Both the position numbers and the translations under genes were made by a program. 64,000 bases of DNA from Myxococcales bacterium (lineage in GTDB: Bacteria > Myxococcota_A > Bradymonadia > UBA7976 > UBA1532), in NCBI GenBank assembly GCA_020633435.1, contig JACKDP010000001.1:517359-581358 (forward strand). The letters run 5' to 3'. Under the pieces are notes generated by a model. That model saw nothing but the letters and a program-made list of their open reading frames with translations, had not been told where the DNA came from and ran no database searches. This document shows, one piece after another, positions 37,513 to 55,501 of this stretch. Positions within the stretch are counted from its first letter, which is position 1. Each line of letters opens with the position of its first letter.

Positions 37513-37643
37513 TTACGGGCCCATGGCAGGCGTCTGTACAGCCAAATCGGGCCATTTCCAGCCCGAAACCTGTACAACCTGTACAGCGAGATCGTGGTCG
37601 CTCCTCAACTCGTGCCAGGGCGGGATCACCTTCCTTGGGCTCC

Positions 37644-38348: not shown

Positions 38349-38423
38349 CAGCCCTCCATCCGTCCCCGTCCGCGCACATGCTGCCGTTGGCGAGCCTATA
38401 GCAGTCGGTCTGTGGAGGTCCAA

Positions 38424-38762: not shown

Positions 38763-39357
38763 TGGCGTCGAACGCGGCGCCCTGCAAGTAGACGCCGCTG
38801 ATCCAGAAGTCGGCCAGCTTGTCGCCGTCCCAGTCGGACTCCACGAGCCGCGCCTTGACCAGGGTGCCGTCCTCCGCGAGCCGGTCGCGCAGCGCAACGC
38901 GACCCGCGAGGTCGAGTTCCGAGAACGTCGCCGACATCTCGGGGCTGACCGACATCAGACCGAACGAGAACTGCCCGATCTCGCCCATGACCGTGTAGAG
39001 ATCGAGGCCCATCGCGGGGACGGCGGCCAGCACCAGCAGGTCGGCTTCGACGGGATCGAGGCCATGCTCCTCACGCAGGTTGACCAGCGGCAGCGCAACC
39101 CCCGCCGCGGCGCTCGCCGCGATCCGGCGGTCGATCATGGTGCGCAGGTTGCCCTCCGCGGTGGCGAGGCGGGCGACCTTCTGCTTCGTCCGGCAGCACA
39201 CGCCGTCGGACTCCGCCGCGGCGTCGATCAGCCCCACGGCCTCGTCGGCTTCCTTGTCCGCCTCGATGCGGGCGCCAAGGTGGCGGCACCTGGCCTTCAC
39301 CCACCGGATCTCGTCCGCGAGGTGGTCGAGGGGGGTCGAGTACGCGAGGGTGTGCAT
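38734..39357 (-). CDS. hypothetical protein
   Basis: 207 aa from ATG 39357 with AAGGAG RBS; no recognisable motif. Confidence 0.45.
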   Translation of the reverse strand: MHTLAYSTPLDHLADEIRWVKARCRHLGARIEADKEADEAVGLIDAAAESDGVCCRTKQKVARLATAEGNLRTMIDRRIAASAAAGVALPLVNLREEHGLDPVEADLLVLAAVPAMGLDLYTVMGEIGQFSFGLMSVSPEMSATFSELDLAGRVALRDRLAEDGTLVKARLVESDWDGDKLADFWISGVYLQGAAFDAITGRAARPH

Positions 39358-39545
39358 GGCGGTGCTCCTTGCTCTCTGGGCCATGCCATCTACTACGCCT
39401 TCGGCCCCAGTCCTGAGCCCCTCCCCCGGCCCCCGGCGGCACCATCACGTCCCGATTTTTCGGGCTTTGACCCCGTTGCGGCGCGTGTCACCGCGCAGTA
39501 CAACCGCTGTGGCAACTTGCGGCAAACAACGGCGAGGACTGCACG

Positions 39546-39749
39546 GTGCCCGAGTACCTGACCATCGACGAGGTTTGCGAGCTTCTCCAGTTGGGCAAGC
39601 GCACCGTGTACGAGCTTGCCCGGACGGGCCGCTTGCCGGGCGCCGCGAAGATCGGCGGCCAGTGGAGGGTCAACCGGGCCAAGCTCGCCGCCTGGCTGGA
39701 GGCCGGGGGCGAGTTCGCCGCGGTCGAGGGGGGCGAGCGCGACGAATGA
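39546..39749 (+). CDS. excisionase/AlpA-family HTH DNA-binding protein
   Basis: LTIDEVCELLQLGKRTVYELARTGRLPGAAKIGGQWRV; stop overlaps the SNF2 start (ATGA). Confidence 0.65.
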   Translation: MPEYLTIDEVCELLQLGKRTVYELARTGRLPGAAKIGGQWRVNRAKLAAWLEAGGEFAAVEGGERDE

Positions 39750-42595
39750 CGACCCCCTACCATGCGCAGTTCTGGGCCTACACGTTGACCGTACAGGGGT
39801 CGCCGGACTCGGTGGACGGCCTGTCGCGGGCCATCTCGAACGCCCGCGTAGACCTGAACCCGCACCAGGTAGACGCAGCCCTGTTCGCCCTCAAGTCGCC
39901 GCTGTCGAAGGGCGTCATCCTCGCCGACGAGGTGGGCCTCGGGAAGACCATCGAGGCCGCCCTGGTGATCTCGCAGCGATGGGCGGAGCGCCGCAGGCAC
40001 ATCCTCGTCGTGGTGCCCGCCTCGCTGCGGAAGCAGTGGCAGCAGGAGTTGTGGGAGAAGTTCTTCATCCCCTCGGTGGTGCTGGAGCGCAAGTCGTGGA
40101 CGCGGCTCCAGGCCGAGGGCAAGCCCAACCCCTTCGACCTCGGCGATCAGGTCGTCATCTGCTCCTACTACTTCGCCGCCAAGCACCGGGAGGCCGTGGC
40201 CCACGTCCCGTGGGATCTGGCCGTCATCGACGAGGCCCACCGGCTGCGAAACGTCTACAAGAAGGGCAACAAGACGGCGAAGGCCCTGTCCGCGGGCCTG
40301 GCCCACGCCACGAAGCTCCTGCTGACCGCGACGCCGCTCCAGAACTCGCTGATGGAGTTGTACGGCCTCGCCAGCGTCATCGACCCGCACCTGTTCGGTG
40401 ACCCCATCTCCTTCCGCGAGCAGTTCGTCCGCGAGGCGGACGAGGGCGTGCGGAACCGGCTGTTGAAGCAGCGCATCGCCGAGGTCTGCCAGCGCACCCT
40501 GCGGCAGCAGGTGCTGGAGTACGTCCGGTTCACGGAGCGCATCCCGGTGACGCAGGAGTTCTTCGCCAGCGACGCCGAGCAGCGGCTCTACGACGAGGTG
40601 TCCGAGTACCTCCGCCGCGACACCCTGTACGGCCTCCCGTCGGCCCAGCGGACGCTGATGACGATGGTGCTGCGGAAGCTGCTGGCCTCGTCGTCCTTCG
40701 CCATCGGCGGCACCCTCGACGGCCTGTTGTACCGCCTCCGGCAAGTGCAAGAGGACGTGCGCAAGGGCACCGCGGTCGCCCTGCACGATGCCGTGGAGGA
40801 CGACTTCGAGACGGTGGACGAGATCGAGGACGACTGGGAGGAGGACGAGGCCACCGACGCCAACGGCGACGACATCGACCCCGCCCTGCTGGCCGACGAG
40901 ATCGCCATCATCGAGGCGTGCTCCAAGCTCGCCGCGGGCATCCATTCCAACGCCAAGGGCGACGCCCTCCTGCGGGCACTCGCGCAGGCGTTCGAGCAGG
41001 CCGAGGCCGTGGGCGCCGCGAAGAAGGCGGTGGTGTTCACGGAGTCCCGGCGCACGCAGGACTACCTGTACCGGCTGCTGACCGCGAACGGCTACGAGGG
41101 CCGCGTCGTGATGATCAACGGCAGCAACAACGACGAGGCCGCCAAGGCCGTCTACGCGGAGTGGATGACCCGGCACGCGGACGACGGGGTGCCCACCGGC
41201 GCCCGCGCCGTCGATGTCCGGGCCGCCATCACCGAAGCGTTCAAGACCGACGCCACCATCCTGCTGGCGACCGAGGCCGCCGCGGAAGGCGTCAACCTCC
41301 AGTTCTGCTCCCTGGTCTTCAACTACGACTTGCCCTGGAACCCCCAGCGGGTCGAGCAGCGGATCGGGCGCTGCCACCGCTACGGCCAGACCCATGACGT
41401 GGTGGTCGTCAACTTCGTCAACGAGCGCAACGCCGCCGACCGCCGCGTCCTCGACCTGCTGTCCGAGAAGTTCAGGCTGTTCGAGGGGGTCTTCGGCGCC
41501 TCCGACGAGGTGCTCGGCGCCATCGAGTCCGGCGTGGACATCGAGCGGCGCATCGCGGCCATCTACCAGGGCTGCCGCACCGCCGAGGACATCGCCGCCG
41601 CCTTCGACGACCTGCGGGCCGACCTCGACGAGCAGATCACCGCGCAGATGAGCGAGACGCGGCAGCGCCTGCTCGACCACTTCGACGAGGACGTGCAGGC
41701 CCGCCTCCGCGTCCACCGCGACCTGGCCCAGGCGTCGCTCGACGAGAGGGGCCGGATGCTGTTGAACCTCACCCGGCACGAGCTTGGGGACGACGCCTCC
41801 TTCGCACCTGACCGGCCCCGGTTCGAGTACCACGGCACCGCGGCTCGTCGCGGGTGGTACAGCCTCGACTGGAAGGCGGCGGACGCCGAGGGCCTGGTCT
41901 TCTACCGCATCGACCACCCCCTCGCGCAGGGCATCGTCGAGCAGGCCCGCCAGCGACAGCTTCCCGTGCAGCACCTGGCCTTCGACTACGGCGCCTACGG
42001 CACGTCGGTCGCGGTGCTGGAGCCGTACATCGGTCGCCGGGGCTGGCTGGCGTGCAGCCTGCTGACGGTGAACTCGGTGGCCGACGAGCAGTTCGTCGTC
42101 CTGGCCGCGGTGACCGACGACGGCGAGGTGCTCGACGCCGAGTGGTGCCGACGCCTCATGCGCATCGGAGCCGCCGCCGAGGGAACGCCCGAGGCGCCCG
42201 CGGATCTGGAGCCCGCGGTCACCGGCCAGGTCGAAGGCCACCTGCGCGACGTGGAGGCCCGCAACGGGCGCTACTTCGACGCCGAGGTGTCGAAACTCGA
42301 CCGCTGGTCAGACGACCTCAAGCTCGGCCTGGAGCGGGAGTTGAAGGACTTGGACGCCGAGATCCGGGCGAAGCGCAAGGAGTCCGCGGTCGCCATCTCA
42401 CTGGCGGACAAGCTCACGGCGCAGCGGGACATCAAGGCGCTGGAGCAGCGCCGGAACCGCAAGCGGCGGGATCTGTACGAGGAACAGGACAAGATCGACG
42501 AGCAACGGGCAGCACTCATCGACGGGATCGAGCGGCAGCTTCGCACCACACATGCGGTGCAGCGCCTGTTCACCGTCCGGTGGAGCATCCGATAG
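39746..42595 (+). CDS. SNF2-family helicase
   Basis: 949 aa: LADEVGLGKTIEA (motif I), VIDEAHRLRN (DEAH), LLLTATPLQNSL, C-terminal helicase motifs and coiled-coil tail. Confidence 0.85.
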   Translation: MTTPYHAQFWAYTLTVQGSPDSVDGLSRAISNARVDLNPHQVDAALFALKSPLSKGVILADEVGLGKTIEAALVISQRWAERRRHILVVVPASLRKQWQQELWEKFFIPSVVLERKSWTRLQAEGKPNPFDLGDQVVICSYYFAAKHREAVAHVPWDLAVIDEAHRLRNVYKKGNKTAKALSAGLAHATKLLLTATPLQNSLMELYGLASVIDPHLFGDPISFREQFVREADEGVRNRLLKQRIAEVCQRTLRQQVLEYVRFTERIPVTQEFFASDAEQRLYDEVSEYLRRDTLYGLPSAQRTLMTMVLRKLLASSSFAIGGTLDGLLYRLRQVQEDVRKGTAVALHDAVEDDFETVDEIEDDWEEDEATDANGDDIDPALLADEIAIIEACSKLAAGIHSNAKGDALLRALAQAFEQAEAVGAAKKAVVFTESRRTQDYLYRLLTANGYEGRVVMINGSNNDEAAKAVYAEWMTRHADDGVPTGARAVDVRAAITEAFKTDATILLATEAAAEGVNLQFCSLVFNYDLPWNPQRVEQRIGRCHRYGQTHDVVVVNFVNERNAADRRVLDLLSEKFRLFEGVFGASDEVLGAIESGVDIERRIAAIYQGCRTAEDIAAAFDDLRADLDEQITAQMSETRQRLLDHFDEDVQARLRVHRDLAQASLDERGRMLLNLTRHELGDDASFAPDRPRFEYHGTAARRGWYSLDWKAADAEGLVFYRIDHPLAQGIVEQARQRQLPVQHLAFDYGAYGTSVAVLEPYIGRRGWLACSLLTVNSVADEQFVVLAAVTDDGEVLDAEWCRRLMRIGAAAEGTPEAPADLEPAVTGQVEGHLRDVEARNGRYFDAEVSKLDRWSDDLKLGLERELKDLDAEIRAKRKESAVAISLADKLTAQRDIKALEQRRNRKRRDLYEEQDKIDEQRAALIDGIERQLRTTHAVQRLFTVRWSIR

Positions 42596-42603
42596 GAGCG
42601 GGG

Positions 42604-44427
42604 ATGTCGAAGAAGACGAAGCTGGAACTGACCTGGATCGGCAAGGACAAGCGGCCCCGCCTGGAGCCGCGCATCCTGCTCGAAGATCCCGAACTGAGCT
42701 ACGCCGCCGACCATCGGGTTCGGCAGGGCGACATCTTCGACAACATGCTGATCCACGGAGACAACCTGCTGGCTTTGAAGGCGCTGGAGCAGGACTTCAC
42801 CGGCGCCTTCAAGTGCGTCTACATCGACCCTCCGTTCAACACCCAGCAGGCGTTTGAGCACTACGACGATGGCGTGGAGCACTCGGTCTGGCTGTCACTC
42901 ATGCGCGAGCGCCTCTCCATCGTCCACCGGCTCATGCACCCCGAGGGGACGCTGTTCGTCCACATCGACGACAACGAGCTTGGCTACCTGATCGTCCTCC
43001 TCGACGAGGTGTTCGGGCGCACCAACCGCGTGTCCATCGTCACATTCAAGCAGGGCTCGGCGACCGGCCACAAGGCCATCAACCCCGGCTGCGTGACGAC
43101 CACGAACTTCGTGCTGATGTACGCCAAGGACAAGGCAGCCTGGAAGCCGCGGAGGGTCTTCACGGCTAGGGAGCGAGACAATCGCTACAACCAGTTCATT
43201 CCGAACATCGGCGACCACCACTCCAAGTGGCGAATCGTGACGCTGATGACCGCCTTCGCCGCCAGCCAGGGGGTCACGGAGACACAGGCCAGGGGTCTGG
43301 CTCGCAAGCAGCCCGACCAACTGGACGAGTTCGTGAAGGACAACGGGCCGAGCGTGGTGCGTCTCGCAAGGCCGTCCTACGACGCCGTCAGCAAGGCTGC
43401 CCAGGCGCTCATCGACGAGTCGAACGCGAACCCCGAAGTGGTGTTCCACCTCCCGCGGGAGGGGCACAAGGACTTCTACTTCATCCGGGGCGAACGAATC
43501 CTGTTCTACAAGGACAAGCTCAGGGAGATCGACGGGCAGTACGTTGCGGGTGAGCCGCTCACGACGCTCTGGGACGACCTCCTCTCCAACAACTTGCACA
43601 ACGAAGGTGGGGTCAGCTTCCCCAAGGGGAAGAAGCCCGAAGCCCTGATCAAGAGGGTCATCGACCTGTCCACCGAGCCCGGTGACTGGGTGCTCGACTC
43701 GTTCGCAGGCTCGGGCACGACGGGGGCGGTGGCCCACAAGGCCGGTCGAAGGTGGGTGATGGTCGAACTCGGTGACCACTGCCATACCCATGTCCTTCCC
43801 CGGCTCCGAGCGGTTATTGACGGGGCCGATTCCAGCGGGAGCACGCAGGCAACCCGATGGAAAGGCGGCGGCGGCTTCCGCTTCTGCCGCCTCGCGCCCT
43901 CCCTACTGGAGGAGGACAAGTGGGGCAACTGGGTCATCAACCGGGCCTACAACAAGGAGATGCTGGCGGAGGCCATGTGCAAGATCGAGGGCTTCCGCTA
44001 CGAGCCGAGCCCGACCATCTTCTGGATGCACGGCCAGTCCACCGAGACGGACTACCTCTACGTCACCACGCAGACCCTGACCCACGAGCAGTTGCAGGTC
44101 ATCAGCGCGGAGGTCGGTGACGAGCGCACGTTGCTCATCTGCTGCTCGGCCTTCCGAGCGCGGCTCGACCAGTTCCCGAACCTCACGGTGAAGAAGATCC
44201 CCGCAGCGGTGCTCGAACGCTGCGAGTGGGGCAAGGACGACTACTCGCTGAACGTCCAGACGGTCATGGGAGAGGAGCCCGAGGCGCCCGAGCCTGAACC
44301 CGACCAGTCCGCGGGCGCCACCGTGCCGCCGCCATCGTCGAAGAAGCGCAAGGGCCGCAAGCCGAAGATGCAGGAGTTGCCGCTGTTCGCCGCGGCCCAC
44401 CATGGCAAGTCGGGAGGTGACCAGTGA
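42604..44427 (+). CDS. Type III R-M Mod-like N6-adenine DNA methyltransferase
   Basis: DPPF motif (CVYIDPPFNT) precedes the SAM motif (VLDSFAGSGTTG). Confidence 0.85.
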   Translation: MSKKTKLELTWIGKDKRPRLEPRILLEDPELSYAADHRVRQGDIFDNMLIHGDNLLALKALEQDFTGAFKCVYIDPPFNTQQAFEHYDDGVEHSVWLSLMRERLSIVHRLMHPEGTLFVHIDDNELGYLIVLLDEVFGRTNRVSIVTFKQGSATGHKAINPGCVTTTNFVLMYAKDKAAWKPRRVFTARERDNRYNQFIPNIGDHHSKWRIVTLMTAFAASQGVTETQARGLARKQPDQLDEFVKDNGPSVVRLARPSYDAVSKAAQALIDESNANPEVVFHLPREGHKDFYFIRGERILFYKDKLREIDGQYVAGEPLTTLWDDLLSNNLHNEGGVSFPKGKKPEALIKRVIDLSTEPGDWVLDSFAGSGTTGAVAHKAGRRWVMVELGDHCHTHVLPRLRAVIDGADSSGSTQATRWKGGGGFRFCRLAPSLLEEDKWGNWVINRAYNKEMLAEAMCKIEGFRYEPSPTIFWMHGQSTETDYLYVTTQTLTHEQLQVISAEVGDERTLLICCSAFRARLDQFPNLTVKKIPAAVLERCEWGKDDYSLNVQTVMGEEPEAPEPEPDQSAGATVPPPSSKKRKGRKPKMQELPLFAAAHHGKSGGDQ

Positions 44428-47400
44428 ACCGCCTCGTCAACACCATCTCGGGTCGTCTGAGCCTCCGGCCCCCGCAGCGCCAGTCGCTGGAGATCCTCGA
44501 CCGCATCTGCGAGATCGCTGACCCGACCAAGGCGACCGATCTCGCAACCGCGCTCGGGATCATCAAGTCCGAGTACCCGTCGGTCACCGACTTCGAGCGG
44601 GACTTCCCCTCGCTGTGCTTCGCCCTCGCCACCGGCGTCGGCAAGACCCGGCTCATGGGCGCCTTCATCAGCTACCTCTACCTGACCAAGCGAAGCCGCC
44701 ACTTCTTCGTGCTGGCGCCCAACCTGACCATCTACAACAAGCTGATCGCCGACTTCACCCCCGGCACGCCCAAGTACGTCTTCCAGGGGATCTCGGAGTT
44801 CGTGACCGCCCCGCCGGTCATCATCACCGGCGACAACTACGAGAGCGGCGTCGGCGTCCGAGAGGAGGCCCGGCGCCAGATGGGCCTGTTCCGGCCCGGC
44901 GGCGAGGATGCCGTCCACATCAACGTCTTCAACATCAGCAAGTTCAACAAGGACACGGGGGGCAGGAAGGGCTCGCCCAGGATGCGGCGCCTGTCGGAGT
45001 ACATCGGTGAGAGCTACTTCGACTACCTGGCCGGGCTCGACGACCTGGTGGTGCTCATGGACGAGGCCCACCGCTACCGCGCCGACGCGGGTATGAAGGC
45101 CATCAACGAGTTGAAGCCCATCTTGGGCCTGGAGTTGACGGCGACCCCCTTCACCGAGTCGGCGAAGGGGCCGGTGGCCTTCGGCAACGCCATCTACGCC
45201 TACTCGCTGGCCGAGGCCATCGTGGACGGGTTCGTGAAGGAGCCCGCGGTCGCCACCCGCAAGGACTTCGACGCCAGCCAACTCGACGACGCGAAGTTGG
45301 AACGCATCAAGCTGGAGGACGGCGTGCGCTTGCACGAGCAGGTCAAGGCCGACCTCCAAGCCTACGCCGCCAACACCGGGCGCCCCTACGTCAAGCCGTT
45401 CATGCTGGTCATCGCCCGCGACACGACGCACGCCTCGGCCCTGATCGACCTGTTCAAGTCCGAGACGTTCTTCGAGGGGCGCTACGCCGACCGCGTGATC
45501 GAGGTTCACTCGGCCCTCAAGGGCGAGGAGAAGGAGGAGACGGTTGAGCGGCTGCTGGCCGTGGAAGACCCCGCCGAGCAGACGGAGATCGTCATCCACG
45601 TCAACATGCTCAAGGAGGGGTGGGACGTAACGAACCTCTACACCATCGTCCCGCTGCGGGCCGCCAACGCCCGCACCCTCATCGAGCAGTCCATCGGTCG
45701 CGGCCTGCGGCTGCCCTACGGCAAGCGTGTCCGCAAGTACGGCCTGCCCCCCACCCACCCTGCCGACCGGCTCACCATCGTCGCCCACGACAAGTTCCAA
45801 GAGATCGTGGACGAGGCCAACCGCGGTGACTCCATCATCCGCCGCATCGACACCATCTACATCGACCCGGAGGAGGCCGCCGACGCTCCGAAGCCGGTCG
45901 AGGTGCCCCCGCTGGTCGAGCAGATTCTTGGCGGAGCCGACCGGCCTACGGTGCCGGGCCTCGGCCCCGCCCCCGCGGGTGACCCGGCCCAGGGCACCGC
46001 CCCCACCCTGCCGACCAAGAAGACGCCGACGTTCCTGACGCCCACGGCGAAGGCGGTGGCGAAGGCGACGCTGACGGCGATCACCAAGAAGACCACGTTG
46101 CCGTCGGCGAAGACGCTTCTGCAACCGGAGCAGCAGAAGAAGCTGGTCGAGGAGGTGAAGGCGCAACTTCCCGACCAGCAGGAGCTACCGGGCATCGAGT
46201 CGGAGATCGAGGAGGTCGTCAAGCAGGCCACCGAAGCCTACGTTGACCTCTCCATCGACATCCCCGAGGTGACCGTCGTGCCCACCGGCGAGGTCACCAT
46301 CGTCTACGCCGACTTCGACCTCGACACGTCCAAGCTGCCTGCGCTCCAGCCCGTCGAGCGGGACATCTACATCCAACACCTGGCGAGCCACGAGCAGCAG
46401 CAGTTGTCTTCCGGCGGTGGTGGTGTCGGCTACGAGCGGCGCCTGGAAGATCACGTTGTCCGGGCGCTCATCGACTTCGACGACGTGGACTACGACGGCA
46501 ACGCCGACCTGCTCTACAAGCTCGCGGGCCAGATGGTCGCCCACCTCCAGGGCTACCTGCCCGACGAGGAGGCCGTGAAGAACGTGCTGGTCTACTACCA
46601 GTCGCGGATCGGCAACCTCGTCCACGGCCAGATGCTGGCCCACCGGCACGAGTTGACGACCGGCTACGAGGTGAAGGTGCTGTCCGGGCACCGTCCGCTC
46701 CAGCCCTCGGTGATCAAGCTCAAGCCGAGCGAGTCCCCCCGGAACTTCCGGGCGCCGGTGGACGACAAGCGCCGCATCCCGCAGATGGTGTTCGGCGGCT
46801 TCTCGAAGTGCTTGTACCCGCTCCAGAAGTTCCACTCGGACTCGGAGCGCCGGTTCGCGGTGCTGCTGGAGATGGACAAGGCCGTGCAGAAGTGGGTGAA
46901 GCCTGCGCGGGCGAACTTCCAGATCGTCCTCAAGGGCGGCTCGCTCTACGAGCCGGACTTCGTGGTCGAGGCCGACGACGCCTTCTACATCGCCGAGGTC
47001 AAGGCCGAGGGCATGGTGCAGGAGGCCGACGTGCTGGCGAAGGCCGAGGCCGCCGCGGTGTGGTGCAGGTCGGCGACGCAGGAGGGGGCGGGCGCCAAGC
47101 CCTGGCACTACCTGCTCATCCCCGCGGACAAGATCGCCGAGAACGCCTCGTTGGCGTGGCTGGCGAAGCAGTACGAGCACAAGGCCAGCGCCCCCGCCGA
47201 GGTCGTGTCCGAGGACGCGGGCGCCAAGGTGCTGCCGTTCAAGAAGCTGGAGGGCACGGAGATCAGGCCCTTCGAGAACTGCGTGCCGCTCTACGCCGAC
47301 CTCAGGATCGCCGCGGGCCGCTTCGGCGAGGAGCTGGCCGTGGACGCGGTGCCCCAGCAGGGCGAGGTGGAGAACCCCGAGGACTACGAGTGGGTCGCCT

Positions 47401-47744
47401 ACCGGGGGAGTTCCCGGCCCCGTCGCGGCCTGTTCGTAGCCCAGGTGGTCGGCGAGTCCATGAACAAGCGCATCCCCAACGGCGCCTGGTGCGTGTTCAA
47501 CCTCGAACACGGGGCCGATGGCGAAGGTGAGATCGTCCTCGCCCGGCACGACGAGATCCACGACGGCGACCTCGGCCAGTTCACCGTGAAGTTCTACCAG
47601 CGCGAGGTGCTCGACGACGACGGCGTGCGGATCACGCTGCGGCCCTCGTCCAGCGACCCGCAGTTCAAGAAGCCCATCGTGCTGGAGAACCTGGCCGAGG
47701 GCGACCTGCGGATCGTGGCCGAGTTCGTCGAGGTGCTGCGGTAG
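44424..47744 (+). CDS. Type III Res-like helicase-endonuclease fused to a LexA/UmuD-like S24 domain
   Basis: 1106 aa: Walker A (ATGVGKTRL), DEAH (VLMDEAHRY), PD-(D/E)xK-like nuclease motif (EPDFVVEADDAFYIAEVKAEG), then about 150 aa resembling an S24 peptidase (GESM, TVKF); GTG overlaps Mod stop. Confidence 0.8.
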   Translation: MNRLVNTISGRLSLRPPQRQSLEILDRICEIADPTKATDLATALGIIKSEYPSVTDFERDFPSLCFALATGVGKTRLMGAFISYLYLTKRSRHFFVLAPNLTIYNKLIADFTPGTPKYVFQGISEFVTAPPVIITGDNYESGVGVREEARRQMGLFRPGGEDAVHINVFNISKFNKDTGGRKGSPRMRRLSEYIGESYFDYLAGLDDLVVLMDEAHRYRADAGMKAINELKPILGLELTATPFTESAKGPVAFGNAIYAYSLAEAIVDGFVKEPAVATRKDFDASQLDDAKLERIKLEDGVRLHEQVKADLQAYAANTGRPYVKPFMLVIARDTTHASALIDLFKSETFFEGRYADRVIEVHSALKGEEKEETVERLLAVEDPAEQTEIVIHVNMLKEGWDVTNLYTIVPLRAANARTLIEQSIGRGLRLPYGKRVRKYGLPPTHPADRLTIVAHDKFQEIVDEANRGDSIIRRIDTIYIDPEEAADAPKPVEVPPLVEQILGGADRPTVPGLGPAPAGDPAQGTAPTLPTKKTPTFLTPTAKAVAKATLTAITKKTTLPSAKTLLQPEQQKKLVEEVKAQLPDQQELPGIESEIEEVVKQATEAYVDLSIDIPEVTVVPTGEVTIVYADFDLDTSKLPALQPVERDIYIQHLASHEQQQLSSGGGGVGYERRLEDHVVRALIDFDDVDYDGNADLLYKLAGQMVAHLQGYLPDEEAVKNVLVYYQSRIGNLVHGQMLAHRHELTTGYEVKVLSGHRPLQPSVIKLKPSESPRNFRAPVDDKRRIPQMVFGGFSKCLYPLQKFHSDSERRFAVLLEMDKAVQKWVKPARANFQIVLKGGSLYEPDFVVEADDAFYIAEVKAEGMVQEADVLAKAEAAAVWCRSATQEGAGAKPWHYLLIPADKIAENASLAWLAKQYEHKASAPAEVVSEDAGAKVLPFKKLEGTEIRPFENCVPLYADLRIAAGRFGEELAVDAVPQQGEVENPEDYEWVAYRGSSRPRRGLFVAQVVGESMNKRIPNGAWCVFNLEHGADGEGEIVLARHDEIHDGDLGQFTVKFYQREVLDDDGVRITLRPSSSDPQFKKPIVLENLAEGDLRIVAEFVEVLR

Positions 47745-47766
47745 ACCGGCATGTAGGAGAAAGGAC

Positions 47767-48168
47767 GTGAAGCAAGAGAACCTTGACGACCTCGTCGCCG
47801 CGGTGCTGGCCGTCAACAGCTACTCCATCGAGAAGGCGTGGGCGCTTCTCCCAAAGCTGCGTGAGGCAGGGCTGACGACGCCTGTGACCTTCCCTACGGA
47901 TCTCGGACCGGCGACCGTCAAGCTCGCGTCGGCGGGGTACGACCGCGGGTTGCTCACGGAGATGTTCGCCAAGCGCCTGCTCGGCCTCATGCAGGAGGCC
48001 GGGTCCGGGGCGCTGGACGAACTGGACGCCTTCGTCGAGGCCGACCGCAAGGACGACGCGGTGGCTCTGCTGGTGACCGTGCCGGGGATCGGCCCGAAGG
48101 TGGCCCGGACCGCCTGGGAGTTGCTCCGTTCGGGACGGGGCGCAGCGGGCGCAGCGAGCAAATCCTGA
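47767..48168 (+). CDS. small hypothetical protein with helix-hairpin-helix-like motif
   Basis: GTG with AGGAGA RBS; VTVPGIGPKVA resembles an HhH. Confidence 0.45.
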   Translation: MKQENLDDLVAAVLAVNSYSIEKAWALLPKLREAGLTTPVTFPTDLGPATVKLASAGYDRGLLTEMFAKRLLGLMQEAGSGALDELDAFVEADRKDDAVALLVTVPGIGPKVARTAWELLRSGRGAAGAASKS

Positions 48169-48245
48169 TCCCTTAGTTTCGAGCATTACTTGGGGTGAGG
48201 GATTTGCTCGCTTGCCTGGGTAGCGTGCCTCGCAGGAGGTGCAAC

Positions 48246-49553
48246 ATGCCCAACTTCCCGAGCCGCATCGACATCGCCAACTCGCCCGAGTATTTCCCGA
48301 TCACGGCGCTCATCGCCGCGGGCCTGTGGCCCGACCTGACTCCGCCCGCCAAGGCCCTGCTGCCCGTCCTGTGGGACTTCCACCGGGAGTACCCCGACGC
48401 CTGCCACCCGAACCGGAAGACCCTCGCCCGGCTGTCGGGCATCAGCCCGCCCTCCGTGTCGAACGCCCTGACGGTGCTGGAGGACATCGGCATCGTGCAG
48501 ACGATCCAGACGCCGGGGCCGAGGCCGAACACCTACAAGCTCAAGTGGACGAATCTCCGGGCGCCGAAGAAGGCTGCCGCCGACACCGGATCGCCCTACC
48601 GGCGTCCGAGTGCGGACTGGGAACTGCACATGGGGACTGACGCCGAGGGCCATGCGGTCGCCAAGTACGAGCGCAAGGGGGGTGGGCTCCACCGCATGTC
48701 CGACGGCTGCTTCATCCGGGGCCAGGTCGAGATGGTGATCCACGACCTGCTCGTGGCCTGGGGCGTTCCCCACTGGTCGGAGGTCGGGTACTGCGACCTC
48801 GGCATCAAGCTCCGGCACGCGAAGTCCGGCGACCTCAACCGGCAGGCCACCGTGGACTTCGTGGTGGCGCCGGGCTTGCTCGTCGAGCGCCTCGGCCTGC
48901 CAGCGACCCAGGGGTCGGCGAAGAAGTACCGGGCCAAGTCCGCCGCGAAGATGAAGGCCGCCCGGAAGGCCGGGTGGACGGTGCTGACCATCGAGCCTGA
49001 CCAGCGGCCCGGCGACTGGCTGCTGGAGCCCATCAGGAAGGCGTGGGCCGACGCGACCATCGACGAGGCGACCCGCCTCCGGCGGCTCCTCCAAGGCGCT
49101 GGGAAGCACGAGGAGTCGCACGGTCCGAGCCGGAAGCTCGACGCCCACATCGAAGATGCGAAGGCCCGGCTGGCGGGCAAGAAGGAGCCCCGCAAGAGCC
49201 GCGGCCTGACCATGCAGAAGCGCGGCGAACATGGGTTCCCCGTGACGTACCGCTGCGACCCCATCATCGTGCTGATGGAGCAGGCCCGCCCCGCACCCGA
49301 GCCCGAGGATGACCTCGACGACTGGTTCGACGAGGTGCCGAGCGCCTACGAGCCGCAGCGCCCGCCCGACCTGCCCGCTCCCGACGAGAGGATGCTCGGG
49401 CGGCTCCGCGACCTGGACGACGAGATCGCCGACCTCGACGACCAGATGGCGGCCCTCGACGATGACAGCGACGACTACCAGGCCCTGCTGACGCAGAAGT
49501 GGGAACTCGAAGGGAAGAAGGGCGACCTGGAGGCCCAGTGCTACATGCGGTGA
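48246..49553 (+). CDS. hypothetical protein with N-terminal winged-helix-like region (possible replication/maintenance function)
   Basis: AGGAGG RBS before ATG 48246; HTH-like NRKTLARLSGISPPSVSNALTVLEDIGIV; acidic C-terminal tail. Confidence 0.45.
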   Translation: MPNFPSRIDIANSPEYFPITALIAAGLWPDLTPPAKALLPVLWDFHREYPDACHPNRKTLARLSGISPPSVSNALTVLEDIGIVQTIQTPGPRPNTYKLKWTNLRAPKKAAADTGSPYRRPSADWELHMGTDAEGHAVAKYERKGGGLHRMSDGCFIRGQVEMVIHDLLVAWGVPHWSEVGYCDLGIKLRHAKSGDLNRQATVDFVVAPGLLVERLGLPATQGSAKKYRAKSAAKMKAARKAGWTVLTIEPDQRPGDWLLEPIRKAWADATIDEATRLRRLLQGAGKHEESHGPSRKLDAHIEDAKARLAGKKEPRKSRGLTMQKRGEHGFPVTYRCDPIIVLMEQARPAPEPEDDLDDWFDEVPSAYEPQRPPDLPAPDERMLGRLRDLDDEIADLDDQMAALDDDSDDYQALLTQKWELEGKKGDLEAQCYMR

Positions 49554-49744
49554 GGGTGCCTCGACGCGGTGCCCGCTTCGGCCTCCCGCTCGCGCACGAC
49601 CGCTTCGAGGTCGTACCGGACGGCGCCGCGGAGCCTCACCACGGGGATCTGCCCGTCCCGAGTCATGCGGCGGACCGTCGAGAGGCTCACGCCGAGGGCG
49701 TCTGCAAGCTCCGTGGCGGTGAGCAGGCGGTGCATGTTGCTCAT
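49541..49744 (-). CDS. excisionase-family HTH protein
   Basis: 67 aa from ATG with GGGGAGG RBS; LLTATELADALGVSLSTVRRMTRDGQIPVVRLRGAVRY. Confidence 0.6.
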   Translation of the reverse strand: MSNMHRLLTATELADALGVSLSTVRRMTRDGQIPVVRLRGAVRYDLEAVVREREAEAGTASRHPHRM

Positions 49745-49990
49745 GTTGGCCTCCCCGGAAGTCGAGTCCATGCACAGATCGCGGCCCATAGGACGACCAA
49801 CCGGGTCGAAACGGTCAGCGACGGTCACACAGTCGCCGCCGCGGCCTCGGGGCGTCCAGAACCGTCGCTGCGGATGGTTCTCGCCGGGCCAACCGTGGGG
49901 GTTGGGACGCCGAACGGTGGGGGTTGGCCGAAGGTAGGTGGATTCGGCCCGGTGCGGCCCGCGGGGTTGTGGCCCGCGGACATGCGCGGT

Positions 49991-50629
49991 TCAGCGGGCT
50001 TCGGCGACGGCGACTTCTGGCCCACCCACCGGACGGGCCTCGGCGAGCCTGCGTCGCAGGGTCGTCCGCGGGAGGCCGAGCATGTCGGCGACCTCGCGGA
50101 CGCTGTGCCCTTGGGCGATGAGGGCCTGGGCTGCACGAAGGTCGAGGCCACGCCGCGGGCGCCCGAACTTCACGCCACGCTCGCGGGCGCGAGCGACGCC
50201 TGCCTGGACGCGCTCTTGGATCAGGGCGTGCTCAAGTTCGGCGACCACCGCGGCGAGCGTGAACAGCGCCTTCCCGAGGGCGGTGGTCGTCTCGATGTTC
50301 TCCCTGACGGACACGAACTCGACCCTGCAACGGCGGAACTCGTCGAGGGCCTCCAGCAGGTGCTGGGTCGAGCGGGCGAACCTGTCGAACCGCCACACCA
50401 TCACCACGTCCACCTCGGCGCCGCGGACGGCGGCCATGAGGCCGTCCAGGCCGGGCCGGGCCTCGGTGGTGCCGGACACGCCGTCGTCGATGAACTCGTG
50501 AACGACCTGCCAGCCGCGCTGCGCGGCCACTCGGCGAAGGTCATCAAGCTGGAGCCCCACGTCCTGCCCGTGCCCGGCGGTGCTCACCCTGGCGTACAAC
50601 GCCGCCCGCGTCTTCCGGCTCGTCGCCAT
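49991..50629 (-). CDS. serine recombinase (resolvase/invertase family)
   Basis: AALYARVSTAGHGQD (catalytic Ser region), C-terminal HTH. Confidence 0.85.
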   Translation of the reverse strand: MATSRKTRAALYARVSTAGHGQDVGLQLDDLRRVAAQRGWQVVHEFIDDGVSGTTEARPGLDGLMAAVRGAEVDVVMVWRFDRFARSTQHLLEALDEFRRCRVEFVSVRENIETTTALGKALFTLAAVVAELEHALIQERVQAGVARARERGVKFGRPRRGLDLRAAQALIAQGHSVREVADMLGLPRTTLRRRLAEARPVGGPEVAVAEAR

Positions 50630-50690
50630 CCCGTCCTCCGCGTCGTCTCCCCCAACTACGGAGTGGGCCGGAAGTCTGAGCCCCGCGGGC

Positions 50691-50785
50691 TTCTGGCCCG
50701 GAGATTCTCGGGGGCGGGCGAGATTCTCCCTGATCGGGTTCTCGGCGTCTTGGCAGGCACCTTCCGCCGCGGGAAACGTCGCCAG
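50691..50785. repeat. three direct copies of GAGATTCTC, followed at about 50848-50882 by a palindrome CCGATC-N8-GATCGG
   Basis: Copies near 50691, 50710 and 50776, upstream of the serine recombinase gene. Confidence 0.5.
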
Positions 50786-51016
50786 CGAGATTCTCGACCG
50801 TCAGGATCGGTTCTTCGGCGAGAAGTTCCCTCTCCGGCGTGTCAGAACCGATTGAAAACCGATCTGGGTTCGGATCGGGGGGCGCGATCCGGGGACTCCG
50901 GGTCACGGACATTTTGCGACCGAGCGGGCCAACGGTCTGCGGCAGGGGGTTGACTCGGGCACACCCTCGGGCCAAGATGTATCCATTGGATACAGGGCGC
51001 CTGATGGCGCAGGGAG

Positions 51017-51298
51017 ATGGTGGTGAGAGAGTACACGGAGCCGGAAGGGGATGCGGCCCAGAACCTCGGCCAGTGGAGACGTGAGTGGGAAGAAATCCCC
51101 CCCTTCCCGTTCAGCGAGTATGACGCATCGGATCGAGCCGTTGACCGCCTCGTGGTGAACTTGCACCTGGCCCTCGACGAGGAGGACGAGATTCGAGAGG
51201 TGCTGGAGCACCTGCGATGCCTCGCTACCGACTACCACAAGTGGTCGGTTCGGGCGGGCAAGCTGCTGGAACACGTCGAAGCTCAGGCCCAACGGTAG
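51017..51298 (+). CDS. small hypothetical protein
   Basis: 93-aa acidic ORF, RBS-like GGGAG at the start. Confidence 0.35.
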   Translation: MVVREYTEPEGDAAQNLGQWRREWEEIPPFPFSEYDASDRAVDRLVVNLHLALDEEDEIREVLEHLRCLATDYHKWSVRAGKLLEHVEAQAQR

Positions 51299-51302
51299 AC
51301 TC

Positions 51303-51587
51303 GTGGCTACGTCCTCTCGGTCCAAGGAACTGCCGACCGGCGCCGAGCAAGTTCGCCTGATCTTGGCGGAACTCGGCTGGACGCATGAGGTGGCGGCGGA
51401 GCACCTCGGCGTGGGCCGCGTGACCGTCAGCCGGTGGGCGAGCGGCGCCCGCGACCCCGGCGAGCAGGTACTCCGGCACCTGCGGATGATCCATCACCTC
51501 CGGGGCCTGCTCGGCGACGACCTCTGGCAGCAGGCGATGGCCGACCTGGCGAGCAGTCAGGGCTCGGAGCGGGGAGCCGCCAAATGA
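51303..51587 (+). CDS. HTH DNA-binding protein
   Basis: AEQVRLILAELGWTHEVAAEHLGVGRVTVSRWASG, HTH-like. Confidence 0.5.
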   Translation: MATSSRSKELPTGAEQVRLILAELGWTHEVAAEHLGVGRVTVSRWASGARDPGEQVLRHLRMIHHLRGLLGDDLWQQAMADLASSQGSERGAAK

Positions 51588-52072
51588 CCGAACATGCGCA
51601 GCTCGACATCCCCGCCTTGGTGGAGGAGATCAACGCCGCCGAGGACGACCCGATGTGGAAGGCGTGGACGAAGGATCGCCTGCGGCTCCAAGACCAACTT
51701 CACGAGCTTCGCGCCGTCCGAGATGCTCTCGCCCGCAAGCTCCGGGCATTGGCGCCCACGACGCCGGGCGGGGACAAGAGGCCCATGACCCGGCGGGAGC
51801 AGCGGATGGCGATGGGCGGCGGCGGCCTGTGGCCGCTGGCCCAGGCTGCGGAGATGCTGCCCATGAAGGACAACGAGGCGAGGGGCTGGCTGCGCAACGA
51901 AGGGCTCGTCGGCGACCTGGCCGGGCGTGAGGTCGTGCATTGGGGCCGCGTGCTCGACGCGCCCTACGCCACGAAGGATGAGGCGCCGTCGGTGCCTGCG
52001 AAGCAGGAGACACGGCGCCGGAAGCCGCTCCCGCGGGTGCGCCTCGGTGGCTCGTCGGGGGCGTCACGATGA
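51584..52072 (+). CDS. hypothetical protein
   Basis: ATG overlaps the previous stop; stop overlaps the integrase start. Confidence 0.4.
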   Translation: MTEHAQLDIPALVEEINAAEDDPMWKAWTKDRLRLQDQLHELRAVRDALARKLRALAPTTPGGDKRPMTRREQRMAMGGGGLWPLAQAAEMLPMKDNEARGWLRNEGLVGDLAGREVVHWGRVLDAPYATKDEAPSVPAKQETRRRKPLPRVRLGGSSGASR

Positions 52073-53202
52073 GCCCTCCAAGGAGTGCGCGACCCAAGCC
52101 CTTCTCGCTCGACATGATCAAGTGCCGGATCGTCCGCGGGCCGCACCCGGACGACCCGAACCGTTGGTACTGGCAGGCGGTCACCTACGGAGACGGTGAG
52201 CAGCGCACCATCTGGACGGGTTGGGGGTCGGTCGAGGAGGTGAAGGCCGCGCTGGCGCCGTTGCTGATGGGGATGCAGGCGGCCCCGTCGCGCCGTGAAG
52301 ACCGGGTGTCCACTGTGCAGGATCTCCTTGAGGTCTGGTTGGCGTGGCAACTCGGCCAACCGAACCTGAGCGAAGGGCGCAAGCTCAACTCGAAGAAGGA
52401 GGCAGAGCACGTCGCCGCCGTGATCGGTGATGTGCTCATCCTGCGGCTCGACACGACGACCCTGACGGAGTACCAGCGCGTGCGGCTGCGCGAGGGGGCC
52501 TCGACCGGCGTGATCCGCAACGAGATCAGCACCGTGATCCAGGCGTGGAACTGGGGCGGGGAGCGTGGGCTCGCACCGGAGCGGCGGCTGCGACGCCCCC
52601 GTTTGCAGCACAAGTCTGTGCGGAACGACTACGTTCCCGACCTGGTGGAGTTCTGGAAGGCCGTGGACGCGCTGCCCGACTCCAGACCCTGGGCTCGCAC
52701 CATGCTCCTCCTGCTGGGTGCGACGGGGGCGAGGCCAAGCGAGATCGCCGCCCTGACCTGGGAGGACATCCACTGGCGACGCCGTACCGTCCGTCTGGAC
52801 GGCAAGACCGGGAAGCGCCTGGCAGTCGTGAGCCAAGAGGTCTTGGACGAGTTGGCGCCGCACCGCCCCGACCCCGCGACTGGCCGCGTCCTCTCCGTGA
52901 GCTTGACCACGGCACGGGTGGACATCCGCAAGATCCTGCGGGACGCCTGCGTTGCGGCCAACGTGACGCCGTTCCTCCCGATGTCCATCCGCAAGATGGT
53001 CGAGAACGCGATGTTCGACGCTGGGGCCGACCCCGGCGTCGTCTCCCGGCAGCTTGGGCACACGCCGGAGGTGTCCTTGAGGCACTACCGCAGGGCGAAG
53101 TCGGCTCGCGTGGACGAGGTTCTCGCTCGTGCGGGCATCGGCACCAGGCCGGACGGCAACGTCGTGTCGCTGGCCGAGCACCGCAAGGCCAAGGACTCGT
53201 GA
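52069..53202 (+). CDS. tyrosine-type site-specific integrase
   Basis: Catalytic-domain motifs (LLGATGARPSEIAALTWEDI; LGHT...SLRHY) with the Tyr near the C-terminus. Confidence 0.85.
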   Translation: MSPPRSARPKPFSLDMIKCRIVRGPHPDDPNRWYWQAVTYGDGEQRTIWTGWGSVEEVKAALAPLLMGMQAAPSRREDRVSTVQDLLEVWLAWQLGQPNLSEGRKLNSKKEAEHVAAVIGDVLILRLDTTTLTEYQRVRLREGASTGVIRNEISTVIQAWNWGGERGLAPERRLRRPRLQHKSVRNDYVPDLVEFWKAVDALPDSRPWARTMLLLLGATGARPSEIAALTWEDIHWRRRTVRLDGKTGKRLAVVSQEVLDELAPHRPDPATGRVLSVSLTTARVDIRKILRDACVAANVTPFLPMSIRKMVENAMFDAGADPGVVSRQLGHTPEVSLRHYRRAKSARVDEVLARAGIGTRPDGNVVSLAEHRKAKDS

Positions 53203-53288
53203 CCTGTACAGCCCGACCTGTACAGCCGCAGGAGCGGCTGTCGTAACATGCTGAAACCATGCGACAAGCTGGCACAGGTGGCGGCGTT

Positions 53289-53318
53289 CAACATCAAGTG
53301 GAAGCCGGGCAACGAGCC
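53289..53318. repeat. attR: 30-bp direct repeat, right copy
   Basis: caacatcaagtggaagccgggcaacgagcc, followed in frame by the likely original gene tail (...NEPTTNLYA, stop). Confidence 0.8.
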
Positions 53319-53406
53319 GACGACGAACCTGTACGCGTGAGCGGTTCGGCAAGGGTTTGATTTGATTGCAAATCTCGCCCGCAGCGTGCTGGCGGGGGCC
53401 GGCCGC

Positions 53407-55497
53407 TCAGGACGTGAGGCGGTCGAAAGCCTGCTGGCGGGCCAGGAGCGTAGGCGACGGGGGCTCGCCCGCGAGGCGGTCGAAGCGGTCAGTGAGCAAC
53501 TTCTGCATCAGCTCGGTATGCGCCGCCGGCAGGCGCTCGAAGTGGGGCCAGAGGAGGTCCAGCGCCTCGTCCGCGGCGGCGCGGGCCTCGGCGGCCCGGC
53601 CGAGGGCAGCGAGGACGTCGCCGCTGCTGTCCATCGCGTTTGCAAGGTCAGGCTCGAACGCGTCCGGACGCGACGACGCAAGACGGCGATAGATACCCAC
53701 CGCCTCCGCCGTCGCTGACAACGCCTCCTCAAGACGACCCAACGATGAGATGTCACCGCCCAGGTTGTTGAGGCTCATGGCAAGGTCAGGCTCGAACGCG
53801 TCCGGACGCGACGACGCAAGACGTCGATACACGTCCACCGCCTCCGCCGTCGCTGACAACGCCTCCTCAAGACGACCCAACGATGAGAGCCGATTGCCCA
53901 GGTTGACCAGGCTCATGGCAAGGTCAGGCTCGAACGCGTCCGGTCGCGACGACGCAAGATGCCGATACACGTCCACCGCCTCCGCCGTCGCTGACAACGC
54001 CTCCTCAAGACGACCCAACGATGAGAGCCGATTGCCCAGGTTGACCAGGCTCATGGCAAGGTCAGGCTCGAACGCGTCCGGACGCGACGACGCAAGATAC
54101 CGATACACCTCCACCGCCTCCGCCGTCGCTGACAACGCCTCCTCTCGACGACCCAACGACGAGAGGTCAACGCCCAGGTTGTTCAGGCCACCCGCAAGGT
54201 TCGGCTCGAACGCTTCAAGACGCGACGACGCAAGACGGCGATAGATACCCACCGCCTCCATCGTCGCTGACAATGCCTCCTCAAGACGACCCAACGATGA
54301 GAGTCGATTGCCCAGGTTGTTCAGGCTCATGGCAAGGTCTGGCTCGAACGCGTCCGGACGCGACGACGCAAGACGGCGATCGAGACCCACCGCCTCCGTC
54401 GTCGCTGACAACGCCTCCTCAAGACGACCCAAAGATGAGAGCCGATTGCCCAGGTTGTTCAGGCTCGTGGCGAGGTCAGGCTCAAACGCGTCTGGACGCG
54501 ACAGTGCAAGACGGCGATAGATACCCACCGCCTCTGTCGTCGCTGACAACGCCTCCTCTCGACGACCCAACGAGGAGAGCCCAATGCCCAGGTCGGTCAG
54601 GCTCATGGCAAGATCGGGTTCGAACGCGTCCGGACGCGACGACGCAAGACGGCGATAGATACCCACCGCCTCCGCCGTCGCTGACAACGCCTCCTCTCGA
54701 CGACCCAACGACGCAAGGTCACGGCCCAGGCTGGTCAGCGCCCTCGCAACGTCTGCGTCCGGGCGTGCCGACGCGAGGCCTCTGTAGGACCCCACGGCTT
54801 CCGTTGACGCCGATAACGCTTCTGCGACCTCGTTCGCCAGGCCCATGTGCCCACTCCGCACCAAGGCCGCCAGCGCGCCAACCATCGCGTCGAAGCGCGC
54901 CGGATCCTCGGGAGCAAGCGCGAGCGCCGCTCGCGCCCGTCGCTCGGCGAGCTCCACCTCGGCAGGCGAGGCCCCATCTGACCGTTGCACGGGCGAAGTA
55001 ACATCGGGCTGCGAGACAGGAACCGGCGCGACCATCGGCTCAACAAGCAGGGTGTTGATAGACCAGAGATCGGGCGCAGCCAGCCGCACTACCGGCCGGG
55101 CCCACGCGGGCATGGCCACGACCAGGGCGTGCAGCCCGGATCGGCGCAGCGGCTCTCGGTGCTCGTTCCAGCGTTGTGCCGCGTTGAACCATGCGGTTCG
55201 CCAATCCTGCTCCGGACCAAAGGCCTCGCACCAGACCACGCCCCCTCTGGGCGCCGCCAGGATGCGACCGAGTGCGTCGCTCAGGTCCCCCGGATGCTCG
55301 CAGAGAACGGTCTCGATCGGCCAGCCACGGGCACCCGCCAGCGCCATCGTTCGGGCCCGAAGAATTCGAGCTGGAAAGCGGTCTGCCGCGACCACCGTCG
55401 CGATGACGAACCGATCTGCGAAATCCAGGAGATCACTGAGCAATTCCCAGGGCCGCTCCTCCAGGAGCGGCTGCGCTGCGAGGTGGTCTTCGGCCAC
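53407..55497 (-). CDS. TPR-like repeat protein (about nine 46-aa repeats), partner of the upstream NTPase
   Basis: Repeat unit RPDAFEPDLAMSLNNLGNRLSSLGRLEEALSATAEAV.VYRRLASS; GTG start 4 nt after the NTPase stop (ORF extends to 55554). Confidence 0.65.
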   Translation of the reverse strand: MAEDHLAAQPLLEERPWELLSDLLDFADRFVIATVVAADRFPARILRARTMALAGARGWPIETVLCEHPGDLSDALGRILAAPRGGVVWCEAFGPEQDWRTAWFNAAQRWNEHREPLRRSGLHALVVAMPAWARPVVRLAAPDLWSINTLLVEPMVAPVPVSQPDVTSPVQRSDGASPAEVELAERRARAALALAPEDPARFDAMVGALAALVRSGHMGLANEVAEALSASTEAVGSYRGLASARPDADVARALTSLGRDLASLGRREEALSATAEAVGIYRRLASSRPDAFEPDLAMSLTDLGIGLSSLGRREEALSATTEAVGIYRRLALSRPDAFEPDLATSLNNLGNRLSSLGRLEEALSATTEAVGLDRRLASSRPDAFEPDLAMSLNNLGNRLSSLGRLEEALSATMEAVGIYRRLASSRLEAFEPNLAGGLNNLGVDLSSLGRREEALSATAEAVEVYRYLASSRPDAFEPDLAMSLVNLGNRLSSLGRLEEALSATAEAVDVYRHLASSRPDAFEPDLAMSLVNLGNRLSSLGRLEEALSATAEAVDVYRRLASSRPDAFEPDLAMSLNNLGGDISSLGRLEEALSATAEAVGIYRRLASSRPDAFEPDLANAMDSSGDVLAALGRAAEARAAADEALDLLWPHFERLPAAHTELMQKLLTDRFDRLAGEPPSPTLLARQQAFDRLTS
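53510..54890. repeat. 138-bp tandem repeats (about 9 copies), coding
   Basis: The motif gtcaggctcgaacgcg recurs at 138-bp spacing; central copies nearly identical. Confidence 0.8.
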
Positions 55498-55501
55498 CGG
55501 G

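Follow-up and report, generated by a model that had tools for sequence, protein, structure and literature searches.

A LexA-type S24 module at the C-terminus of a type III restriction subunit suggests a link between DNA-damage sensing and restriction control

Results and Discussion

A type III Res subunit that ends in an S24 module

The DNA analyzed here is a stretch of 64,000 nucleotides from a Myxococcales bacterium (GenBank assembly GCA_020633435.1, contig JACKDP010000001.1, positions 517,359 to 581,358), which we call the window. One of its genes, a single uninterrupted open reading frame (ORF) at 44424..47744 (+), encodes a type III restriction (Res) subunit of 1106 amino acids (aa), plus the stop codon, whose C-terminus carries a LexA-type S24 module. 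The Res gene is translationally coupled to a gene for a type III Mod DNA methyltransferase of 607 aa with a DPPF motif (42604..44427, +; Pfam N6_N4_Mtase 134 bits, PADLOC MTase_III 619 bits); the two genes have the same orientation, and the Mod stop overlaps the Res start by 4 nucleotides (nt). A SNF2-family, DrmD-like helicase of 949 aa (39746..42595, +; Pfam SNF2-rel_dom and Helicase_C, PADLOC DrmD) lies ahead of Mod and Res and opens a three-gene cassette. Because many other defence enzymes that cut DNA carry the same module, an undescribed link between DNA-damage sensing and restriction control is suggested.

A preliminary description of this DNA, made from the letters of the sequence, had called the protein a type III Res-like nuclease. 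Its sequence and its structural model identify it as a genuine type III Res subunit of a predicted working type, with an ATPase motor and a PD..ExK nuclease. The protein matched the PADLOC model REase_III (PDLC03648) with 734 bits. The superfamily 2 (SF2) helicase-like ATPase motor spans about aa 33-434 (44520..45725, +) and was recognized by Pfam ResIII (aa 33-243, 72 bits), SWI2_SNF2 and Helicase_C (aa 348-429). The PD-(D/E)xK endonuclease domain occupies aa 795-861 (46806..47006, +), with the motif P844-D845...E858-x-K860. Walker A (G71-T75, GVGKT) and the DEAH box (D213-H216) of the motor, as well as P844, D845, E858 and K860 of the nuclease, are unchanged across 73 homologues. The Pfam RE_endonuc match is weak in this Res (E 0.084), but it is recorded for the homologues P0037, P0040 and P0083. 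An AlphaFold2 model of the full-length protein was of moderate quality (predicted local distance difference test, pLDDT, 72; predicted template modelling score, pTM, 0.40), and its top match in the PDB by Foldseek was the Res subunit of EcoP15I (4zcf_C, E 1.1e-9). The system thus resembles EcoP15I and EcoP1I, in which an SF2 motor is followed by a C-terminal PD-(D/E)xK nuclease and the Mod gene lies immediately upstream. It differs from them by the C-terminal S24 module and the upstream SNF2 (DrmD-like) helicase gene, and its Res shares only about 14% sequence identity with that of EcoP15I.

The module has the fold of LexA, UmuD and CI

The preliminary description had placed a LexA/UmuD-like S24 domain at 47290..47744, which corresponds to Res residues 956-1106 and the stop codon. 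The domain is there, but it starts earlier than proposed: the conserved module begins at about aa 936 (nt 47229) and extends over aa 936-1106 (47229..47741, +), comprising a lead-in (LPFKK..RPFENCVPLY), a cleavage-site region and a catalytic core. The Pfam family Peptidase_S24 (PF00717) matched the last 199 aa with 32.9 bits (E 5.8e-8) and the whole protein with 28.8 bits, above the gathering score of 23.3. No model in NCBIfam or PADLOC covered the S24 part. Searches of the PDB by sequence were equivocal: phmmer with the C-terminus returned only spurious multi-repeat matches to designed Kelch-like proteins, and a profile search against PDB sequences gave weak matches to LexA (E about 0.2). Because these searches did not settle the S24 identity, a fold comparison was needed. 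For aa 922-1106, an AlphaFold2 model based on an alignment of 73 sequences reached a pLDDT of 85.9 and a pTM of 0.81; the module has the S24 beta-fold, and its fold matched LexA, UmuD and CI.

The sequence and the model together suggest that the C-terminus is more than the fold alone and apparently constitutes a complete S24 self-cleavage device, including the substrate loop. Judged from the sequence, the module is akin to the C-terminal domain of LexA, and the protein is not a LexA: the N-terminal winged-helix DNA-binding domain of LexA is not present, and what precedes the predicted cleavage site is the Res motor-nuclease. Unlike LexA, lambda CI and UmuD, the protein has a restriction motor-nuclease of 960 aa as the cargo ahead of the site, and no DNA-binding domain. 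The module further differs from these proteins in its conserved lead-in, LPF(R/K)..PF.N.VP, and its cleavage is a prediction; compared with LexA, roughly 13 residues are inserted after the cleavage site and before the core, and the lysine is preceded by about 7 additional residues.

The predicted cleavage site and catalytic dyad are conserved

In a profile alignment to Escherichia coli LexA, the residues R-I-A-A-G of the module (961-965) fall on R-V-A-A-G of LexA (81-85). The predicted scissile bond is A964-G965 within RIAA/GRF (47313..47318, +), which aligns with A84-G85 of LexA. The predicted nucleophile, Ser1012 (47457..47459, +), lies in a GESM motif (aa 1010-1013, nt 47451-47462) and aligns with S119 of LexA, and the predicted general base, Lys1056 (47589..47591, +), lies in TVKF (aa 1054-1057, nt 47583-47594) and aligns with K156. 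The serine and the lysine had been pointed out in the preliminary description and were found at the LexA positions; the LexA-like cleavage site is an addition to it. GESM had been likened there to a GDSM of LexA; GDSM is the motif of Mycobacterium tuberculosis LexA, and E. coli LexA has GMSM.

All three features are strongly conserved. Across the alignment of 73 sequences, A-A-G and Lys1056 are invariant and Ser1012 is present in more than 90%. The S24 extension occurs in 23 of the 120 best Res homologues (proteins of about 1070-1112 aa), which form two groups, 64-100% and 49-53% identical to the window protein, and every one of the 23 keeps AAG, the serine and the lysine. A hidden Markov model (HMM) made from the 73-sequence alignment detected 289 domains among 382 retrieved proteins; 229 of these have AAG together with the serine and lysine, and most of the exceptions are truncated fragments. 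The same combination was found at 78 of 80 loci from reference genomes, where only AAG and the lysine are independent of the search, one of the genome-search patterns having included the serine. In the active-like set, P1 is alanine in 235 of 235 domains and P2 is alanine in 229 of 235; A, V, I, F or L is found at P3, and K or R predominates at P4. Glycine at P1' is present in all 235 by selection, the set having been chosen on that residue. The pattern of conservation indicates purifying selection on the cleavage site, the serine and the lysine.

The LexA residues that contact RecA have been described (PMC9926225), and their counterparts in the module, mapped through a profile alignment of 27% identity, are F1004 (F111 of LexA), which is invariant, and F/Y1053 (V153). 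Close to the position of the D150-E152 patch of LexA, the module has an invariant Asp1047 and, at 1049, an acidic residue. Self-cleavage might also be independent of RecA, either as a constitutive maturation step or in answer to a cue such as pH, another stress, a phage protein or an anti-restriction factor. All S24 proteins autodigest at high pH, and the insertion at aa 966-990, between the site and the core, has no counterpart in LexA. However, the counterparts of the RecA-contact residues are conserved, and constitutive cutting would leave the fusion pointless; we consider RecA-independent cleavage improbable.

Variants that have lost the site and the dyad together

Among the 289 domains, a discrete set has lost the A-G site together with the serine, which is replaced by alanine (by histidine once), and the lysine, which is replaced by arginine. 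These dead domains are found in P0247, P0255, P0264, P0268, P0293, P0322, P0346, P0367 and P0369, and the full-length members are SNF2 or Helicase_C proteins. They cluster only partly, and the losses may represent one or a few evolutionary events. Their joint loss fits the view that the site, the serine and the lysine work as a single functional unit. The conserved phenylalanine and the acidic motif were retained in both dead sequences inspected (P0322 and P0367).

The dead variants point to a possible non-catalytic role of the fold, such as dimerization or binding of the RecA filament. By extension, the S24 module of Res could serve a structural role without any regulatory cleavage, either as a dimerization module, as in LexA and CI, that pairs two Res nucleases, or as a RecA-filament tether that recruits the enzyme to recombination intermediates. 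The S24 C-terminal domains of LexA and UmuD do dimerize (PMC9926225), and the persistence of dead versions on SNF2 helicases, with the phenylalanine and the acidic motif kept, suggests that the fold is useful beyond catalysis. Against a purely structural role, fusions to Res, HsdR and DUF2075 show hardly any variation of the cleavage site, the serine and the lysine, and close relatives of Res function without the domain, so the core reaction does without S24. A structural role alone is, in our estimate, a poor prospect for this protein. The module may tie restriction to DNA damage or control oligomerization, as the preliminary description had proposed, and the catalytic option is strengthened because the AA-G site is invariant and a separate group has lost the site, the serine and the lysine together.

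An add-on to Res and to unrelated defence enzymes

The module is joined to the Res core through a variable linker of low confidence, at about aa 915-935 (47166..47228, +), in which the pLDDT of the full-length model falls below 50 at aa 931-935. Two close relatives without S24, P0005 (90% identical) and P0012 (80%), end within this linker, and a relative in Nitrospira is a plain Mod-Res pair. Because close relatives stop inside the linker, the Res core would not need S24 for its basic reaction. The sequences and the model thus describe the S24 module as a clean, portable C-terminal add-on, attached through what is predicted to be a flexible linker.

The 185-residue module was used in a word-indexed search and in an exhaustive phmmer search of 1.84 billion representative proteins. 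The latter gave 871 matches at E<=1e-3, of which 298 were at E<=1e-10. The scope proved to be wider than the preliminary description had envisaged, and the same module was found on many other defence enzymes. The same S24 subfamily is located at the C-terminus of type I HsdR subunits (HSDR_N, SWI2_SNF2, T1R_D3 and T1RH-like_C; PADLOC REase_I 1139 bits) and ends other ResIII and RE_endonuc families. It is also carried by MmeI/Eco57I-type methylase-nucleases, by SLFN-g3/DUF2075 helicases, some of them with GIY-YIG and with partial PADLOC matches to PDC-S41, AbiO and Nhi, by DUF3427 helicases and SNF2 helicases, and by proteins of about 2000 aa that align with P0244, which contains MZB/DUF1998. 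PLD and HNH nucleases, HATPase_c_3 (GHKL) ATPases and ordinary XRE-HTH repressors carry it as well. In some MmeI/Eco57I-like enzymes the S24 domain is internal, with about 180-200 residues after it (P0327, aa 797-963 of 1166; P0330, aa 1146-1311 of 1490); cleavage in enzymes of this type would yield two substantial parts.

A scan of 100,044 species, one genome each, with two narrow peptide patterns gave 224 loci, a minimum figure. Of these, the best 80 are spread over Desulfobacterota/Geobacterales, Myxococcota, Acidobacteriota, Planctomycetota, Verrucomicrobiota, Beta- and Gammaproteobacteria, Nitrospira, Actinomycetota, Chloroflexota and Bacillota. By our labelling these 80 comprise about 53 DUF2075 helicases, about 15 HsdR, 3-4 type III Res and 2 P0244-like (MZB) proteins. 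Among the carriers are cultured organisms: Lujinxingia vulgaris, Achromobacter insuavis LMG 26845, Geomonas edaphica and Curvibacter sp. PAE-UM.

At some loci the S24 domain was annotated as a small gene of its own, overlapping or adjoining the end of a Res or DUF2075 helicase gene (L001, 1686-2234; L005, 8001-8912; L006, 7001-7600; L007, 1080-1643). Candidates for stand-alone S24 genes acting in trans (P0121, P0139, P0172 and P0226) were rejected, being overlapping split ORFs beside helicase or Res genes. The two-gene entries at L001, L005, L006 and L007 could be taken to mean that the fusion is itself an artefact, whether through faulty assembly, through a frameshift fusing Res with an adjacent repressor gene or through a motif matched by chance. 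However, the split cases resemble frameshift errors, with overlapping ORFs in metagenome assemblies, which is most likely what they are. The fused ORF is present in 23 of the 120 best Res homologues, which belong to two clades and come from numerous samples, as well as in Lujinxingia vulgaris and in dozens of reference genomes. Codon usage is even along the Res gene (G+C at third codon positions 0.96 in the S24 part and 0.95 elsewhere), and the HMM and fold statistics are significant. The artefact explanation is effectively refuted, and we give it almost no weight.

It is about an even chance, in our judgement, that the module is a portable, LexA-derived switch, cut on the RecA filament, which has been grafted repeatedly onto the motor and nuclease subunits of immune enzymes.

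A possible RecA-coupled off-switch for restriction

The identity of the domain, its fold, the intact and conserved cleavage site and dyad, and a modular and promiscuous distribution are established. For the window protein we favour, tentatively and at somewhat less than even chances, a built-in, RecA-coupled alleviation of restriction, in which Res would cleave itself and would then be degraded by ClpXP. In an undamaged cell, the full-length protein would restrict DNA as its S24-less relatives do. When filaments of RecA on single-stranded DNA (RecA*) arise in DNA damage, repair or self-restriction, the S24 module would dock in the filament groove as LexA does, and Ser1012 and Lys1056 would cut the A964-G965 bond. 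The S24 module would be released, and Res would be left with a ...DLRIAA-COOH end. This new end would resemble the ...RVAA-COOH end of LexA(1-84) and the ...LAA end of the ssrA tag, which are both recognition signals for ClpXP, and ClpXP would degrade Res. Restriction would then be off while repair synthesis makes unmodified sites, as a brake on autoimmunity.

RecA* appears to be the most likely trigger because the module is LexA-like down to the sequence of the cleavage site and because the counterparts of the RecA-contact residues are conserved. Residues P4-P1 of the module read (K/R)-(A/V/I)-A-A, similar to the RVAA of LexA, and Neher et al. are said to have found in 2003 that ClpXP takes LexA(1-84) as a substrate by way of its RVAA end. 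We favour an off outcome because cleavage followed by a degron needs no specific contact with the cargo, which fits at least 10 unrelated enzymes; because classical restriction enzymes must act before a RecA* signal can exist; and because it mirrors the alleviation of type I restriction by ClpXP acting on HsdR, itself a frequent cargo of S24. The HsdR subunits of type IA and type IB enzymes are destroyed by ClpXP after DNA damage, a process known as restriction alleviation (PMC12707154, PMC11109961).

Several points weigh against this off-switch. The cut at A964-G965, the RecA* trigger, the degron role of the new C-terminus and the off outcome are all steps that we infer, and the RecA-contact counterparts come from the 27%-identity alignment mentioned above. 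The conservation of P3-P1 could reflect the protease's own substrate pocket and not a degron. At replication forks, type III enzymes are by their nature less dangerous than those of type I, and their need for alleviation is less obvious. RecA-independent S24 cleavage is known, for example in IrvR (PMC7101444). Once rid of S24, the protein would be like the Res that naturally lacks it and is presumably active, so that the off outcome hangs entirely on the degron step. For partners that have no obvious methyltransferase, such as the PLD, HNH and DUF2075 proteins, an activating sensor is at least as logical.

The last two points lead to a serious rival, an activation switch, in which the tethered and possibly dimeric S24 module keeps the enzyme inactive and RecA*-triggered cleavage frees the active nuclease. 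RecA* would in this case come from phage single-stranded DNA, from replication or recombination intermediates or from the SOS response during prophage induction, and S24 would be a sensor of infection or damage. The cleaved product would equal the natural S24-less Res, and many nuclease and helicase partners without a visible methyltransferase (PLD, HNH, GIY-YIG with DUF2075, DUF3427 and GHKL proteins) need a trigger. UmuD, moreover, is an S24 protein that is activated by cleavage (PMC9926225). On the other hand, one small domain would have to inhibit at least 10 structurally unrelated enzymes, and classical type I, type III and MmeI-like enzymes must act at once on incoming DNA, before RecA* is formed. 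Ordinary DNA damage would also loose the nucleases on the host genome. Activation is, on balance, unlikely for the window protein, though it keeps an appreciable share of our expectation.

Relation to known systems

The proposed off-switch resembles the alleviation of type IA and type IB restriction in its outcome: proteolysis removes the motor-nuclease subunit at a time when unmodified sites arise through repair. In EcoKI alleviation, a complex translocating on host DNA provides the signal, and the process does not depend on LexA (PMC11109961). The sensor proposed here differs in being built into the enzyme and in reading RecA* directly. A 2025 review of restriction-modification (PMC12707154) describes no alleviation mechanism for type III enzymes, and if the reading is true, the window Res would be the first type III enzyme described with a device for restriction alleviation. 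The mechanism by which hosts escape killing by their own restriction enzymes once DNA is damaged is understood for some type I systems only, in which ClpXP degrades HsdR. CapH/CapP and similar DNA-damage-responsive regulators of defence act at the transcriptional level, through a separate pair of metallopeptidase and repressor. The likeness lies in the coupling of immune activity to a DNA-damage signal by proteolysis; in contrast to CapH/CapP, the S24 autoprotease of the window is fused to the effector enzyme itself.

No account of such a fusion, or of any restriction or defence enzyme that carries an S24 domain, was found in the searchable full-text literature, which omits most subscription-journal papers. 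Neither "S24" nor "LexA" occurs in the 270,000 characters of the same 2025 review (PMC12707154). The novelty appears to lie in the architecture and the regulatory link that it implies; the Pfam match on single proteins is already contained in domain databases.

Should self-cleavage on RecA filaments be true, it would represent a new control principle for bacterial immunity, whether it brakes autoimmunity or serves as a trigger upon infection, and a general, so far unrecognized post-translational layer that links innate immunity directly to the DNA-damage sensor. Single mutations of the serine, lysine or glycine should then lock the switch, which gives a simple experimental handle, and the module could provide synthetic biology with a compact, transferable tag for DNA-damage-responsive degradation or activation. 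The recurrence of the module on at least 10 kinds of defence enzymes over many phyla adds to its interest, and the cultured carriers make testing feasible now.

The cassette and its island

The triad of SNF2 helicase, Mod and Res with S24 occurs again in Lujinxingia vulgaris (L002; helicase 87% identical), where it is located within a defence island that carries GmrSD and Mrr, and in a Planctomycetota genome (L010). The SNF2 helicase and the Mod-Res operon may represent an undescribed, helicase-assisted variant of type III restriction. A remnant of the triad was seen in L003. The last ~300 aa of the SNF2 helicase have no Pfam match.

The cassette resembles DISARM in that the upstream helicase matches DrmD models best and adjoins an adenine methylase, but its partners are a classical type III Mod-Res pair. 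With 675 bits, the helicase stays below the cut-off of 950 of the NCBIfam model DISARM_DrmD_b (NF038318), and DrmA, DrmB (DUF1998) and DrmC (PLD) are all missing from the cassette. For these reasons the cassette is not called DISARM.

The cassette lies within an island of lower G+C content (window 37600-57000), about 0.65-0.70 compared with 0.75-0.79 in the flanks. Mobile-element genes of the island encode an HTH_36 protein (48195-49553), an excisionase-like HTH_17 protein (49541-49828, -), a serine recombinase (49991-50629, -) and a tyrosine integrase (52069-53202). The backbone recurs in L001, whose HTH_36 protein is 72% identical. At the island borders no tRNA was found that would mark an attachment site, and a promoter and terminator scan of the operon gave nothing informative.

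Three neighbouring features deserve mention. Just upstream of the SNF2 helicase and divergent from it lies a gene for a 216-aa winged-helix protein (PF22977, 72 bits; 38734-39384, -), which could regulate the cassette. Beside the integrase, at 53407-56800 (-), an AAA_16/STAND-like ATPase (55502-56800) adjoins a 715-aa TPR protein (53407-55554); PADLOC gave only a weak TPR match for this pair, which may constitute a second defence locus of the STAND/Avs type. A 133-aa ORF that follows Res directly (47767-48168) shows a weak helix-hairpin-helix match, and a 101-aa ORF occupies the equivalent place in L001.

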